Shown: positions 6,226 through 13,032 of the stretch, piece after piece
Position numbering within the stretch: the first letter of the stretch is position 1
Layout: each line of letters starts with the position of its first letter
Assembly (NCBI GenBank): GCA_040143965.1
Contig: JASJQH010006922.1
Coordinates: 1-38,384 of the forward strand
Origin: Basidiobolus ranarum
Taxonomy: Eukaryota
Direction: 5' to 3'
DNA: 38,384 nt
Notes under the pieces: generated by a model
Seen by the model: only the letters and a program-made list of their open reading frames with translations
Told to the model about the DNA's origin: nothing
Databases searched by the model: none
Made by a program: the position numbers and the translations under genes

Positions 6226-9018
6226 TCATTTATTGTTTTCACTCTTTGTAGACCATCCAGAGAATGGTTCGAATCTGCTTGTGAATGGCATACGTTGAGA
6301 AGAAATCGACGAATTCCTTGATCTATTATCTACATGTACAGGGGATGCAGATCTATCCGCTAAATTATTACTTGATACTTTTTTAGAAGTCAAAAACTCT
6401 CCACTCCCGCCGGTAGCTTCTAGAGCCCCTACAGGCAGTTGAGGTCTTGAGCTTGAGGTTTCGTTGTTGCATGAGGAATGTCCGAAAAGATTAAACTCTC
6501 TACCTCTAAACCCTCTGCCATTTGCTAGGCCAGAAGGTGGCGTAACTGTCCCAGCTGGTGAATTGCTATGTTTGGTTGAAAATAACGTGGCCGTAGAGCC
6601 ATCAAATTCCGGTGTAACTGTTCCTGATCGTGCAGGCACTGGTTTTGATATAACGGTAAACTCAGTTGGGTCATCGATACTACCAACTGGTCCATATTCA
6701 AACAACGAATGAACACTTCCTTGTGAAGACTGATATCGATGGCGTGGCCTAAACGAAGTGGAATTCGATACATCGTCGGCTTCATGATTATTAAACCCAC
6801 TGGAGGTTGAGGCTGAGTTCAACATGGCAAGCAAGTCTGGTGCACTATTATTGTTGACTGCTAAATTTCTTAGTGGATTATTACCAACTCGCCTTTCACC
6901 TACCACACCTGAAGAAGTAAATCCACCAGAGAAGCCTGCGAACAATGATTGCGGCTGGGAAGCTACGGTAGAGAAAATGGGAGGCGAGACTACGCTCTGA
7001 CCAGCTATGGAAATCTCGGGTAGATTGTCGCCAACTGTAGGGCCAAATAGTTGATATCCACCAGTATAAGCATTATCGAGACGGTTGAATCGTCGAGCCT
7101 TGTTCAACTCCTCCATAATAGTCCACTTTTCGTGATCTAGTCGAAGCAATTGATCTTTAATACTTCGCTCAAGCTCTTGAAGTTGAAGATAATTTTGAAA
7201 AAGAATGCGATGTTCTTGGTCTAGTGACATCTTTTGATTCTTTAATTTACTATCGGGTTCAGTAATTCGTCCATTCTCATTCAAGAGTTTCTCCAACTCC
7301 TCTTCTTTCTCGACGATTTTACGCCATAAATTCTGTTTAGTGGTCATAGCATCTTCAAGCTCTTTTTCCGCAAATGTTATATCGTTTTGAAACGTTGAAA
7401 GTGATTCTTCTAACATCTCCTTTTCTTTGTTGAATTCCAATTCGATTTGTTTTACTTTATCCTTCGCAGCTTCCGTAGATTTTTGAAGAGAATCCTTTTC
7501 TCTTTCTTTAGTTTGGAGAGCATCTTGAGCATGCTGTTTAGCATTTTGCTCGAGCTTCAATTCCCGTTCCAATTTTATTCTTGCCGCATCTGCTTCCGCC
7601 TTGGCGTCATCGAGAAGCTTTAGACGACTTTTTAGCTTCATCTTAGGCTCTTCTTCTGCTCTTTTGAGTGCACGAAGACGGTCCAACTCATTACGTATGT
7701 TGACCTCCTCTATCTGCGATTGTTTCTCTACTTCCTTTGCATTTTGAGCAATCTCTTGACGTTGTTTCTTAATAATATTACATTCGCTCCGCAATGCTTC
7801 TAACTTCTCTTCAGTGATTGAGACTTGAGGATTTTCATCATTTACGAGAACCTTCTGACTAACGACTGGCGTATTTTTAGGTTCCAAAGATTTCGATAGC
7901 GAATCTTTATTGACTAGAAGAAAGAGAAGAAGTTAAGATAAAAGAAAGGATAACCAAAAGATAATTTAAAGGAAATCATACTGTTACTAAGATTAGAGAT
8001 GGACGTAGGGACGATAGGTAAGGTTTTGATCCCAATACACTGAGAAGAAGTACGTATACGTGAATTTGAAACTGCCCATACTCGGATTTTATACCATGTA
8101 TTAGGAGAAAGTCCCAAGATTTCTACCGAAGTTTCTTGTTTATCTGATTCACCAGCGATTACACCATTAATTTCTATCAGATATCTTTCTATGGATGGTT
8201 TCTCCGGTAGTGTCCAGTATATACTTGTTCCAGTTTCCTTTACATTTTTGATGTATATCACCGGTGGTGTAGGGATTATCAATCCAAAGAAAAGTCCAAC
8301 TTTGTCAAAGGAAGAATGAACAAAAAACGCCAAATGATATAATATCCAAAGAAGTCCAAACGAGGTACAATGAGCAGCTATGGGTGCCATAAAATCGGGT
8401 GGTATGATAGAAAACCAAGGCAATCGATATCTAACCACTGAAAGTCCAGTCACTAGTATCCAACCAATGATATCTAACCCGTGAAAACCATGAACTAAAG
8501 AAGCATTCACTACTGAAGATGCCAAAAAACCAGTCATTTGGTAAGAAGCTAAATAGTAAGTTAACCCACTGGTCGTGAGTATCAAGGCAAAAAATACAAT
8601 AAACACCGCTATACTTATAGAGAAGGCGTTGAAAAATATGGTAAACGTGAAATAAGAAAAAAATAACCATTCAAGTGGAAGGTTGAAACAATAATCCATA
8701 AAAACCATAATTGTCCAAACAAAAATTACACTAAAGGCGCGATGTCTATCAAAAACACGTTCAGGTAAAATAGGCGGAGGTTTGAAAGTGGACATGAACG
8801 ACAGTTTGGTAAAGTGAATGGGAAATAATGGTCAATAACCAGGATAGAAATAGAGAGATAAAGAGGTGGTTAGTATCTATTGATGTGGAGGTCCAAATAA
8901 CACGAAAATACCGGTCAAGTGAAGCAGCAAGGCGATCGATAAGATTTGGATCCTTTAGATATGTCGAAGAGCCAGGTCTCCGCCATGTAGTTCTCGAAGT
9001 GAGCTCATCAGTATTCAT
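6226..9018 (-). CDS. Macoilin-like multipass membrane protein with FN3 domain, long coiled coil and Ser-rich tail, 3 exons
   Basis: Exon 1 9018-8912, intron 8911-8746, exon 2 8745 to about 7982, short intron ending at 7914, exon 3 to stop at 6226. TM region has VW..D..E[WY]L..F.VFF..TS..AS..V and P.AAHC; FN3 pattern W...Y...LSPNTWYKIRVWAV; then about 250 aa of heptad-rich E/K/L sequence. Confidence 0.8.
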
Positions 9019-9181: not shown

Positions 9182-9403
9182 TTCATTCACTTGTTACAGT
9201 TAACTAATTTGTGAACTGATCAGCTAGCCAATCCGATCATGGAATTCACCTGAGTGACAATACTCGGAAGTAGATTATAGTAAATGTATTAGCTATACCT
9301 ACATGAGTTTGCATCGGAATCTAACCGGAGATGTCAGATACAAATTATGAGGTTATGATCGACAAATGTTTTATCTCTTTTGCATTCACCAACTCGTGTC
9401 AAC

Positions 9404-10087
9404 ATGAGCTCTAAAAAAATCTTTACTTTAATTGTTATACACGACAAAGAGCAGAACAAGGTACAATCTGCATAGAGAATATAGCATTTTTTCGGACTAC
9501 TGAAGGTTTGTTCTAGGTTCTGCTCGGAATGAAAAAGAGAGGGTTTGGAAAAGGAAAATGGAACGGCTTTGGTGGTAAAGTGGAATTGGGAGAGACAATC
9601 GAGCAAGGCGCTTTAAGAGAACTTGAGGTTAGTTACTAACCACGGTCATGTCAAGGAGAGAATACCAAATAACTTTGGTGACACCAGGAAGAGGCGGGCA
9701 TTACCGCTACTGGTCTTTACAAGGCTGGATTAATGTGGTTCAAGTTCGCTGGAGACCCAGTGATTCTCGAGGTTCATGTATTCTGTGCTCACAGCTATGA
9801 AGGAGACATTATCGAGTAGGTGAAACTGTACCCAACTCTTCTATTATCCATTATATTAATGTTTATTTAGGACGGAAGAGATGAAACCGCAATGGTACGA
9901 TATAAAGAATATCCCTTTTGATAGTATGTGGCAAGACGACCAGTATTGGTTCCCCTTTCTCTTGCAAGAGCAAACATTCGTAGGGAAGGTTGCGTTCAAA
10001 GAAGATCAAACAACAGTTGAATACCAAAACATTCATGTGGTTGATACCCTTCCCATCCCAACACCAACTGATATTCCAGATTTCTAA
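9404..10087 (+). CDS. NUDT1: Nudix hydrolase, MTH1/NUDT1-type oxidized purine nucleoside triphosphatase, 4 exons
   Basis: Spliced protein contains [41 protein letters not shown] (Nudix box with MTH1 signature) and EEMKPQWY...[15 protein letters not shown]. Confidence 0.9.
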
Positions 10088-10328
10088 TAAAATTCAAAAA
10101 TAATGAGTTTAAATTTGGAATCCGTAAATTACCTATGATTTAAGTCAATATTTGCTTTGCAATGCTCAGTAAAAAAAACTATTCAATTTGGTTGCAATTG
10201 ATCCAACCACTCAGATTCTGGTCATTTCGAGTGCAGAGATACTTCTTTTTTTTCTGAGCTATTACTGTCAGCTTGAGTAATCAAAGTAACGCTCACCACC
10301 ATCTCCACCAAACCCTACATTTCTAAAG

Positions 10329-11211
10329 ATGGAGACAAATCCTCGTGGTATACCCAAAGCTCCATTTATTGTATGTATTCAAGGCATTATCTTCAAATTT
10401 GTATGACTCGACATTAAATGTCGCTTTAATTTAGGAAAATGTTGATGAATACATCTCCGAAGAAAATACTACCGAAGTAACTCTTCGTAAGTTTCAAGAG
10501 GCAGTTAGGTAAATAGCATGTTTTCTGTCTTTATTTTGTGAAGAGTTGTGGTTAATATTCGGATGTGCTTTCTAGCAAATACAAGTTCATGGAAGTCAAC
10601 CTACTTCAGAAAAAGAAGTCTTTAGAGATGAAGATCCCTGAACTCAAAAAGACTCTCGACGTCATAGAACTTTTACTTGAAAAGAAGGTTGGTGCTTTCA
10701 CTGATTTTACACTTGTGAAGTAATCAAAGCTAAATTTGAACGTACATAGGACAGTGACGAGCCTCTTGAGACTCAATTCGAGTTACATGAGACTTTGTAT
10801 GCTAACGCCAAGATTCCTATCACCGATAAAGTGAACCTATGGCTCGGTGTAAGTAGTCAAATCCTGTCGAGTTTTTTCTTGCGCACCTGGCTAATGTCAA
10901 GGGTTCATGTAGGCCAACGTCATGTTAGAATATAGTGTAGAAGAAGCTCAAGAATTGATCAGTAGCAAGCTCATCACTGCCAAGAGCAGTCTAGAGCAAG
11001 CTAATGAGGACGCATTATTCCTTCGTGATCAGATTACCACTATGGAAGTCAGTATCCTTTTTGTGCAAATTGCAACGAATCGGCGATATTTTAACAAGAA
11101 TTTATTTGAGCTCTCGTATTCCTTAACTACTTCTCCCCTTCAGATATTGCACGCGTATACAACTGGGACGTTAAACAGAGAAGAGGTACCAAAGAAAAGT
11201 CCGATCAATAA
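10329..11211 (+). CDS. PAC10: Prefoldin subunit 3 (VBP1/Pac10/Gim2), 6 exons
   Basis: METNPRGIPKAPFI...KYKFME...KIPELKKTL...FELHETLYA...VNLWLGANVMLEY...[25 protein letters not shown]; stop TAA at 11209-11211. Confidence 0.93.
11052..11143 (+). other. U12-type (minor spliceosome) GT-AG intron, last intron of prefoldin 3
   Basis: 5' site GTATCCTTT (11052), branch TTCCTTAAC (11119-11127), 3' CAG (11141-11143); removal restores [15 protein letters not shown]. Confidence 0.88.
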
Positions 11212-11364: not shown

Positions 11365-12891
11365 TTAATTTGATGAGGCCTTATTTAGAATTCTAGCCGA
11401 GCGCCTTTTGGGTGCATGTGATGAAACGTCCTCACTTGTGTCAAACTCGTTATTTTCTGTCTCCAAAGCTTGAAGTATTTTCTTTTTCACTGACTTCTGA
11501 CGTGTAGGATTGTGTAGAGTATCTTTGCCTTCTGTTACTTGAGTGATATCCAAATCCTTTTCTTTGTATGTGGCATCGGAGCTCTTGCTTTCCGAACTGA
11601 TCACAATTTCTTTTTCTGATTTGGGCTTTGGTTTCGACTTCACTTTACGTGGTTGTTTTTGATCTATTGGGATATCTCCATTTGTCTGACTTTCGTCCAA
11701 GACTTTTGCTGCCTTTGATTTGACTTGTTTTTTTCTTCGTTTGTCGGGAGATGATTCCTGTACCTCTTTGCTATCTATCTCTACCTTTCGAGATTTGGTA
11801 CTTTTGCGACCTTTTGTCTGCGTACTTTCCTCGCTTGCTGGTGGTATCAATACGTCTGGATTCACCGGTAGGATGTCGTATAATGTGTACAGCTCTAGCA
11901 CTGCTTGTTCTTTGTCTTTTGCCTCGATCATTAGGTCCATATCACGTTCGCATGGTGGTAATTTCTTCACGCGATTGGAGTGAGCCCGTTTCTCCATGAT
12001 ATTCGATGCACCAGGCCGCTCTTCGGAGTAGTGTTGTTTCTGTTTAATACCGCGAGAGCGCCAGATATCTTTTATTCTCGAGAGAACTTCCAACAAATCC
12101 AGATCACCCAAGTTCAGACTGTGGTGATGCCAATCAAACACCAGAGGAATGTTTAGTTTCTCACACACTGGTAAGATATCCGATGCTGAATAGCATATTT
12201 CATCATTTTCCAGTACCAATCTATTACGTACTGAGGGTGGACATTTAGCGAAACCTTCTTCGAACCTTGCTAGCGTTGCTTCTTTGTCACCATAGACACC
12301 CCCCATATGGATGATCATTACTGAGTCTTGATCGAGTTCCATCAGGTCAAGCATTTCAGCATGATATGTGAGATCCGCAATGGCCCGTCTCACCACTTCT
12401 GAATTAGGTGAGGCCAACTGGGTATATTGACCTGGGTGGCTAGTCAATCTGTGCCCCAGGCGCTTGGCCAACTCACCAGCTTTTTTTAGTTCATCTGAAG
12501 CATAGTCAAGAGAATAGCCATACAGGTCGTGACTAGCGAAAGGAAACATTTCACTGGAGACTCTCATGAATTTTATATTATTTTCCTCATTCCACTGGAT
12601 GATAGAGCTCAAGTCACGAATATTTTGTAAGCCCAAAGACTTTACATATTCTATACCTTTTTGCTTTATGGTGTCGATGCGACAAGTACGAGAGCAAAAC
12701 ACTGGGTCTTGTTTCTTACGCTTACGTAGATATGTGTTCAAACAAGCATAACCCAAACGGCCTGTAAAAGGAAGTTTCTCTTTTGACTCGATCAAATCTC
12801 TGGGTATGGACATGTTACGTTGAATTAAAGAGAAACGGTGAGCTTGGTTTTTACTGTATAGAGCACGTCGTAGAAGAAGCAGTGAGAACAT
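11365..12891 (-). CDS. UVE1: UV-damage endonuclease (UVDE/Uve1) with basic low-complexity C-terminal tail
   Basis: GRLGYACLN, FMRVSSEMFPFASH, RLTSHPGQYTQLASP, IHMGGVYGDK, RLVLENDE, VFDWHHH, KQHYSE, RAHS, DLMIEAKDKEQA. First real ATG is 12891 (12912 is TTG); second in-frame ATG at 12813. Confidence 0.95.
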   Translation of the reverse strand: MFSLLLLRRALYSKNQAHRFSLIQRNMSIPRDLIESKEKLPFTGRLGYACLNTYLRKRKKQDPVFCSRTCRIDTIKQKGIEYVKSLGLQNIRDLSSIIQWNEENNIKFMRVSSEMFPFASHDLYGYSLDYASDELKKAGELAKRLGHRLTSHPGQYTQLASPNSEVVRRAIADLTYHAEMLDLMELDQDSVMIIHMGGVYGDKEATLARFEEGFAKCPPSVRNRLVLENDEICYSASDILPVCEKLNIPLVFDWHHHSLNLGDLDLLEVLSRIKDIWRSRGIKQKQHYSEERPGASNIMEKRAHSNRVKKLPPCERDMDLMIEAKDKEQAVLELYTLYDILPVNPDVLIPPASEESTQTKGRKSTKSRKVEIDSKEVQESSPDKRRKKQVKSKAAKVLDESQTNGDIPIDQKQPRKVKSKPKPKSEKEIVISSESKSSDATYKEKDLDITQVTEGKDTLHNPTRQKSVKKKILQALETENNEFDTSEDVSSHAPKRRSARILNKASSN

Positions 12892-13032
12892 GCAAAAGCA
12901 AGGAATACACAATAATTATAAAAAAGTACATACACTCTTGCTACGTCAAAATCCTCAGAAATGGTGGAATTAAATAGGTGGTTTATTTTCTTGTATTCAG
13001 TTCGTGTCCTTTTTTCTTGCTATTCATTGCAA

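Follow-up and report, generated by a model that had tools for sequence, protein, structure and literature searches.

A probable fungal relative of macoilin with a fibronectin type III domain and a coiled coil in Basidiobolus ranarum

The window, i.e., the whole stretch of 38,384 nucleotides (nt) analyzed here, comes from contig JASJQH010006922.1 of Basidiobolus ranarum, a species classed in Basidiobolomycota, outside Dikarya. On its reverse strand lies a three-exon gene (6226..9018; stop codon 6226..6228) which, from sequence reading and translation, encodes a product of 852 amino acids (aa). Sequence comparisons show that the N-terminal membrane domain of this protein is homologous to that of macoilin (MACO1/TMEM57 and MACO-1; Pfam PF09726). 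We consider it probable that the gene encodes a fungal macoilin relative, composed of membrane domain, fibronectin type III (FN3) domain, coiled coil, and tail, that functions as a cytosol-facing, membrane-anchored scaffold, most likely in the endoplasmic reticulum (ER). The spliced product is identical, letter for letter, to public protein P0004, recorded as a "hypothetical protein" of B. ranarum and listed in UniRef as a fibronectin type-III domain-containing protein.

Exon 1 (8912..9018) encodes aa 1-35 and two bases of codon 36, i.e., a basic N terminus with an amphipathic helix at aa 24-36. Intron 1 (8746..8911; 166 nt, GT..AG) follows, and its removal restores the frame of P0004. This long first intron is supported because the junction of exons 1 and 2 (...SLD/RHRAF) falls inside a D-x-L...RH(R/K)A stretch that is kept in chytrid homologues. 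The exon 1 peptide is conserved in P0006 of Basidiobolus meristosporus. Intron 1 (8746-8911, reverse strand) also contains a perfect TACTAAC box ∼120 nt upstream of the first AG/acceptor, an unusually distant branch-point-like motif. Exon 2 (7982..8745) carries the membrane domain and the FN3 domain in a single unbroken reading frame, and the two are therefore not separate genes. Intron 2 (7914..7981; 68 nt, GTATGA..TAG, phase 1) leads into exon 3 (6226..7913), where the frame continues as in P0004. A first-pass annotation of this DNA had described the span 8020..9018, which corresponds to exon 1, intron 1, and most of exon 2, as a macoilin homologue fused to an FN3 domain, and the peptide that it quoted (WRRP...FVWTIMVFMDY...PIAAHC) is present in the translation.

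The macoilin-like membrane domain (8277..8741; aa 38-192) was delimited by AlphaFold2 and by the homology tests described below. Prediction from ten aligned membrane regions (predicted local distance difference test [pLDDT] score, 76.9) gave the amphipathic helix at residues 24-36 and six long membrane helices, at 38-56, 60-79, 81-101, 104-124, 127-142, and 152-192. The same six helices, followed by an eight-strand sandwich, were predicted for exon 2 as a whole from 42 aligned sequences (pLDDT, 92.3; predicted template modeling score, 0.73), with most of the FN3 part above a pLDDT of 90. Two motifs mark the membrane domain: P-L-E-W (8667..8678), which lies between helices 1 and 2 and is conserved in the fungal family, and P-I-A-A-H-C (8367..8384), which is read from the translation at the start of helix 6 and is common to macoilin. 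No Foldseek match was obtained at E ≤ 0.001 for the membrane-only model, and this domain is thus without a solved counterpart. Sequence searches of the PDB with the profiles of the main (A2) and second (A3) fungal subgroups gave no match at E ≤ 10, and comparison of aa 1-195 of the window protein and of the family protein P0056 with the ESM Atlas gave no usable feature match, every structure row having a template modeling score of <0.45.

The FN3 domain (8025..8261; aa 198-276) is supported by Pfam PF00041 (E = 7.1e-8; 33 bits against a cutoff of 25, so that the gathering score is reached), by the predicted strands, and by Foldseek, which matched the exon 2 model to 455 PDB chains at E ≤ 0.001; among the matches listed, almost all are of the FN3 type. 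The best match is to chains of the yeast exomer structure 4q66 (E = 4.9e-7), of which the chain concerned is presumably Chs5. The FN3 domain that had been read directly after the membrane region is thus real, as is the long coiled coil reported to follow it (7060..7827; aa 320-575). This region of ∼255 residues comprises three runs free of proline and glycine (60, 124, and 64 residues), is highly charged and rich in lysine and glutamate, and has a hydrophobic periodicity with a peak at 3.5 residues, as expected for a coiled coil; a conserved block lies near its start in the family consensus (alignment A6). A predicted complex of two copies of the coiled coil (aa 322-576) scored 0.00 in a run without controls, a value with no bearing on dimerization. 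The remaining 277 residues (6229..7059; aa 576-852) form a tail that is rich in serine, threonine, proline, and glycine and poorly conserved in family alignments, and it is probably disordered.

The first-pass annotation also proposed that this architecture links the protein to uncharacterized fungal proteins of the same layout, and a family of this kind was found. When 1.84 billion representative proteins were searched with a profile built from ten membrane regions, 54 clusters were recovered at E ≤ 1e-3, 43 at E ≤ 1e-10, and 20 at E ≤ 1e-30; with four close relatives from sequence searches, these give the 58 family proteins considered here. The window protein is a full member, with the same architecture and an E value of 1.2e-91 to a five-sequence profile. 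An FN3 domain was detected in most members scanned (22 of 25 in one scan and 8 of 9 in another). Records were looked up for 42 proteins: an organism is named for 29, all of them non-Dikarya fungi, and the other 13 are environmental. The named sources include many chytrids, Gonapodya among them, the Kickxellales Coemansia, Mycoemilia, and Spiromyces, the Mortierellaceae Mortierella and Gryganskiella, and Basidiobolus. Fifteen of the 16 members without a record look-up sit among, or resemble, named non-Dikarya members in the tree or the alignment, and the sixteenth (P0020) pairs with the environmental P0008. Five clusters form a second, more divergent subgroup, one from Polychytrium aggregatum, which also has a main-subgroup form, and four from environmental sequences; its alignment to the main subgroup is strong (hhalign 99.2%, E = 3.6e-19).

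Conservation within the family is highest in P-x-E-W between helices 1 and 2 (P in 47/47, E in 45/47, and W in 45/47 filled rows) and in A-A-(H/Y/F)-C-x-x-(F/Y)-G, which lies where helix 6 starts. Of 57 rows, 55 keep the cysteine of this second motif, and its histidine position is occupied by H in 37 rows, by Y in 13, by F in 6, and by N in 1. A histidine-dependent catalytic site is unlikely in the fungal family, as judged from this variation in the motif. Public names of the members are either "hypothetical protein" or "Fibronectin type-III domain-containing protein," and a literature search found no published description of the family or of its architecture in chytrids.

Some features of individual members may be recorded here. 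B. ranarum and B. meristosporus have two gene copies each (P0005, P0006, and P0007), and identity to exon 2 of the window is 83% for P0005 and 70% for P0006. In several of the chytrid homologues P0009-P0015 the FN3 domain is split by inserts of ∼60-100 residues, and fn3 is absent from the precomputed Pfam column for these proteins; in two of them, long inserts also occupy the loop from helix 5 to helix 6. P0014 (Nowakowskiella sp., partial) shows PF12624 in the precomputed Pfam column and a C-terminal half unlike that of the family, and it is probably a merged gene model. P0057, P0058, and P0060 are short, alanine-rich environmental proteins that match the membrane profile at E values of 1e-6 to 1e-4 and have an odd composition and a very long branch.

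For comparison with macoilin, metagenome contigs were scanned with a degenerate pattern encoding P-x-A-A-H-C-(I/V)-G-Y-P, in which the first six residues came from the finding in the window and the last four are those that we take macoilins to have. Fifty-eight environmental loci matched, against a chance expectation of about two by our own estimate, and many of these carry uninterrupted open reading frames (ORFs) that are 600-940 codons long and in which the motif lies at residues 130-307. All 10 of the ORFs scanned belong to PF09726 (E values of 3.5e-29 to 1.8e-254; 102-847 bits), which shows that the library contains a functioning PF09726 model. Eighteen macoilin membrane regions, less than 85% identical to one another, were taken into alignment A7; P-x-AAHC is invariant in these rows, which were selected with that motif.

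Several lines of evidence relate the fungal membrane domain to that of macoilin. Composition-adjusted BLASTP of the membrane region of the window (exon 2 only) against a single environmental macoilin (L045) gave 30 bits and an E value of 8e-6 for this one comparison, with 34 of 130 residues identical (26%) and eight gaps; the alignment is collinear from the VW of helix 1 to AAHC, and its first 59 columns are free of gaps. Most of the residues that the first-pass annotation had aligned with human macoilin, i.e., VW, D, E-x-L, F, F-x-VFF, TS, Q, F-x-AS, and P-x-AAHC, are also paired by BLASTP between the window and this environmental macoilin. The pairing of WRRP with LRRP is unsupported because it lies outside every computed alignment and because, within the fungal family, only Basidiobolus keeps WRRP. 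In profile comparisons, hhalign against A7 gave 91.8% (E = 7.2e-7) for the membrane region of the window, 95.8% (E = 7.8e-9, 130 columns) for the ten-sequence fungal profile A2, 96.2% (E = 2.3e-9) for the second subgroup A3, and 96.6% (E = 4.9e-10) for all 58 fungal rows. With both alignments truncated just before the motif, A2 and A7 still matched over 101 columns in the same register (score 40.3; 84%, E = 7e-6). Hidden Markov models (HMMs) were reciprocal in their results, with fungal/macoilin scores of 28-50 bits: the 58-sequence fungal HMM scored 45.5 bits on a full macoilin ORF, and a membrane-only macoilin HMM scored 28.4 bits on whole P0004, the best among all fungal proteins.

Controls were run because the macoilin rows had been selected by motif and because hydrophobic profiles can match falsely; profile-profile methods have given false macoilin matches before (PMC3146951). 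The full alignment of A2 with A7 scores 61.1, compared with 18.3 for the reversed macoilin alignment. In the permutations, columns were shuffled within 20-column blocks or the order of the blocks was shuffled, and neither treatment of the full alignment reached the real score (within-block, 15.2 ± 3.0, maximum 26.5, 0/70; block order, 35.7 ± 3.1, maximum 51.4, 0/70). The same holds without the motif, where the real score of 40.3 compares with 17.5 for the reversed alignment and was reached in 0 of 80 within-block shuffles (14.6 ± 2.2; maximum, 20.6) and 0 of 80 block-order shuffles (21.6 ± 2.8; maximum, 30.0). With an HMM built from 50 main-subgroup sequences, the median score of the 18 macoilin membrane regions was 28.1 bits and the highest 34.4, while decoys reached at most 11.2 bits (900 shuffled) and 1.7 bits (18 reversed). 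In the other direction, the membrane-only macoilin HMM scored up to 32.4 bits on cut-out fungal membrane regions, 32 of 50 of which lie above all 1,049 decoys. Composition as the source of the similarity is ruled out by these permutation and decoy controls.

A number of results nevertheless weigh against a macoilin relationship or limit its extent. The first-pass annotation had named the Pfam Macoilin model, applied to the isolated membrane region, as the check on its homology claim; PF09726 gives no match at E ≤ 10 to the membrane region, exon 2, or exon 3 (gathering score, 32 bits), and taken literally this outcome goes against the claim. No PF09726 match was seen in the 58 family proteins, with the reservation that for one scan this applies to the 25 commonest of 66 families, so that a weak match in a single member is possible. 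Among the proteins recovered by the fungal profile at E ≤ 1e-3 in the exhaustive search, none carried PF09726. The macoilin set was itself selected by the shared motif and comes from environmental contigs rather than named animals, and 10 of the 18 rows of A7 were Pfam scanned, the other eight being 65-84% identical to L045. P59 and W62, near-invariant in the fungi, are not kept in macoilin, which retains only the E of P-x-E-W, and the histidine of the AAHC motif is replaced in 20 of 57 fungal rows. The C-terminal halves of the fungal and macoilin proteins score 104 by hhalign against 67 for the reversed control, too small a margin for a conclusion, and the match was set aside as coiled-coil background. 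The precomputed Pfam column likewise shows no PF09726 for public family records; word-indexed protein searches reached no macoilin, and the one that used the second-subgroup profile found just 2 of the members that made up its query. Because PF09726 gives no match, P0004 is best described as a remote relative rather than a member of the Pfam family. The claim of a macoilin homologue thus stands for remote homology of the membrane domain, on the evidence of BLASTP, hhalign, HMMs, and controls, and falls for membership in the Pfam family.

A full-text literature search, with supplementary tables, InterPro, and PANTHER outside its reach, found no description of fungal macoilin relatives. Citations of PF09726 outside animals led to a Ser/Thr/Pro-rich Mycosphaerella protein and a Giardia basal-body protein; these were set aside as reflecting low complexity or coiled coil and not homology of the membrane domain.

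A maximum-likelihood tree was built from 68 membrane regions, leaving out eight fungal fragments of <120 residues (P0007, P0024, P0048, P0051-53, P0060, and P0061). A long branch (Shimodaira-Hasegawa-like approximate likelihood ratio test [SH-aLRT] support, 100) separates the 18 macoilins from the rest, and the second fungal subgroup lies nearest that split. The zygomycete lineages of the main subgroup cluster away from most of its chytrids, and P0004 groups with the Basidiobolus paralogues P0005 and P0006 (SH-aLRT, 99). By these sequence comparisons, the proteins with a membrane domain, FN3, and coiled coil are shown to be a distinct family of non-Dikarya fungi that stands opposite the macoilins in the tree. 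None of the 10 macoilin ORFs scanned has an FN3 domain, and in the divergent macoilins L002 and L015 the last helix runs straight into a basic, macoilin-type linker.

The environmental ORFs L002:3-866(-), L015:2-928(-), L028, and L034 are divergent macoilin-like sequences without FN3. Among them are two that share a long branch within the macoilin part of the tree, with scores of only 102 and 138 bits on PF09726, and they may come from lineages far from typical animals.

The simplest history would be a single ancestral gene that existed before the divergence of animals and fungi, was duplicated within fungi, and was lost in Dikarya. The statement of the first-pass annotation that macoilin predates the animal-fungal split is accordingly what the tree and the phyletic spread most simply suggest; gain of FN3 in fungi and its loss on the macoilin side are both possible. 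More tentatively, the macoilin membrane domain may be an old opisthokont module, and early-diverging fungi may have stayed near the ancestral form, with a cytosolic FN3 domain between anchor and coiled coil; animals would have lost the FN3 domain and Dikarya the whole gene.

The distribution of charge suggests an orientation. Basic residues cluster ahead of helix 1, in the loop joining helices 4 and 5, and just past helix 6, and the mean number of lysines and arginines (K+R) is 5.35 on the segments proposed to be cytosolic compared with 2.08 on the alternate ones, which favors an N-in/C-in topology, as a modest argument. Both flanks of the macoilin membrane domain are also strongly basic. Both ends of the protein would then face the cytosol, and the FN3 domain, coiled coil, and tail would be located there because six helices and the pattern of basic residues place both ends on that side. 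By analogy with macoilin, the membrane domain may anchor the protein in an endomembrane, most likely the ER, and the FN3 domain, as a binding module, and the long, probably self-associating rod could project into the cytosol as a scaffold or tether. Such a membrane-proximal scaffold would bind other proteins.

Four alternatives to this interpretation, or to parts of it, have to be weighed. That the resemblance to macoilin is due to chance or composition, as a false match typical of hydrophobic membrane proteins, appears very unlikely. It would account for the silence of PF09726 and has precedent in the earlier false macoilin matches by profile-profile methods noted above, and by our own rough estimate it is not rare for two 190-residue regions to share a single motif at 5 of 6 positions. 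Yet none of 310 permuted alignments reached the real scores, and none of 1,967 decoys reached typical real scores (the highest decoys scored 11.2 and 7.6 bits, whereas the medians of the real sequences were 28.1 and 13.6 bits); the similarity outlasts removal of the motif, and the composition-adjusted BLASTP alignment is collinear over 130 residues. Less probable still is an artifact of the gene model, in which a membrane/FN3 gene and a coiled-coil gene have been wrongly fused through a predicted intron. P0004 is itself a prediction, but the membrane domain and FN3 lie within one exon, intron 2 has canonical ends and keeps the frame over its 68 nt, and the same order of membrane domain, FN3, and coiled coil occurs in proteins from Chytridiomycota, Kickxellomycota, Mortierellomycota, and Basidiobolus.

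The remaining two alternatives concern orientation and descent. With the opposite orientation, the FN3 domain, coiled coil, and tail would be lumenal or extracellular, and the gene would encode a surface or wall-associated protein. Animal FN3 domains are mostly extracellular, Ser/Thr-rich tails of fungal proteins are often glycosylated stalks, and the charge rule is blurred by the fairly basic loop joining helices 5 and 6 (K+R, 1.64). Against this, the model has six helices, and both termini are put on one positive side by the conserved RH(R/K) ahead of helix 1 and the stretch rich in K and R that follows helix 6; the N terminus shows no evident signal peptide; the coiled coil is rich in lysine and glutamate; and fungi do have cytosolic FN3 domains, the best fold match being the 4q66 chain that we take to be Chs5. 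We regard this orientation as improbable. A somewhat greater, though still low, probability attaches to the possibility that the fungal family descends from an old paralogue that already existed beside macoilin, in which case macoilin proper may still be an animal or holozoan invention. The long branch that separates the fungal family from macoilin (2.53 + 0.31 changes per column) would fit such a history, as would the presence of FN3 in the fungal family and in 0 of 10 macoilin ORFs and the failure of the Pfam model to cross over to the fungal proteins. On the other side, no organism was seen with both forms, where no fungal proteome was searched with a macoilin profile; none of the 58 fungal-family proteins was seen to match PF09726; and the two fungal subgroups are closer to each other (E = 3.6e-19) than either is to macoilin, which is the expectation if they were duplicated after one split. 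The gene is best interpreted as a fungal macoilin relative whose FN3 domain, coiled coil, and tail probably face the cytosol.

Among characterized proteins, macoilin is the closest parallel. MACO-1 of Caenorhabditis elegans is mainly found in the rough ER, and its membrane part and coiled coil are both needed for function (PMC3093358); macoilin is needed for normal neuronal activity and excitability and is conserved among animals (PMC3093358), and a second source calls it neuronal and places it among metazoan-specific genes (PMC3789837). Likenesses to the fungal protein are an N-terminal multihelix membrane domain, collinear from helix 1 to P-x-AAHC at the start of the last helix, basic flanks on both sides of this domain, and a long C-terminal coiled coil (PMC3093358). 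In contrast to macoilin, the fungal protein has an FN3 domain directly after helix 6, at the place of the macoilin linker; macoilin lacks the fungal P-x-E-W motif; the fungal protein gives no match to PF09726; and the fungus has no nervous system, whereas macoilin is described as neuronal (PMC3789837).

Nothing separates the window protein from the unnamed proteins of early-diverging fungi with membrane domain, FN3, and coiled coil. The FN3 domain of yeast Chs5 (exomer; PDB 4q66 and 4yg8) resembles that of the window protein as the best Foldseek match of the exon 2 model, a likeness at the level of the fold only, with many other FN3 chains within about tenfold of its score. Chs5 has no membrane domain; it is a fungal cytosolic FN3 protein that acts at a membrane. 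The ER chaperone RIC-3, to which MACO-1 was likened by its authors, is comparable in layout, with an ER membrane anchor and coiled coils (PMC3093358), but it has two membrane helices and no FN3.

Since it was described in 2011, macoilin has had no molecular function assigned to it; what is known is its place in the rough ER and its need for normal neuronal activity (PMC3093358). A relative in at least four non-Dikarya fungal phyla would push the origin of the membrane domain back before the divergence of animals and fungi and suggests that a macoilin-like membrane domain functions in organisms that have no neurons. As a likely handle for protein binding, the FN3 domain offers a concrete route to partners, and at least 54 sequence clusters labeled "hypothetical" or "FN3 domain-containing" gain a name and a testable hypothesis. 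Should the membrane domain indeed be an old opisthokont module, chytrids, Mortierella, or Basidiobolus would provide a nonneuronal and genetically simpler setting in which to study the function of macoilin and the partners of its FN3 domain.

Three other genes were noted in the vicinity. A small multiexon NUDIX gene (∼9400-10090, forward strand; one exon matching PF00293, E = 1.8e-6) is divergently oriented to the macoilin-like gene and is followed by a multiexon prefoldin subunit gene on the same strand (∼10330-11200; one exon matching PF02996, E = 2e-9). The product of a long ORF on the reverse strand (11368-12915) is a UV-damage endonuclease (Pfam UvdE, E = 4.4e-90) that has a lysine- and serine-rich C-terminal extension.

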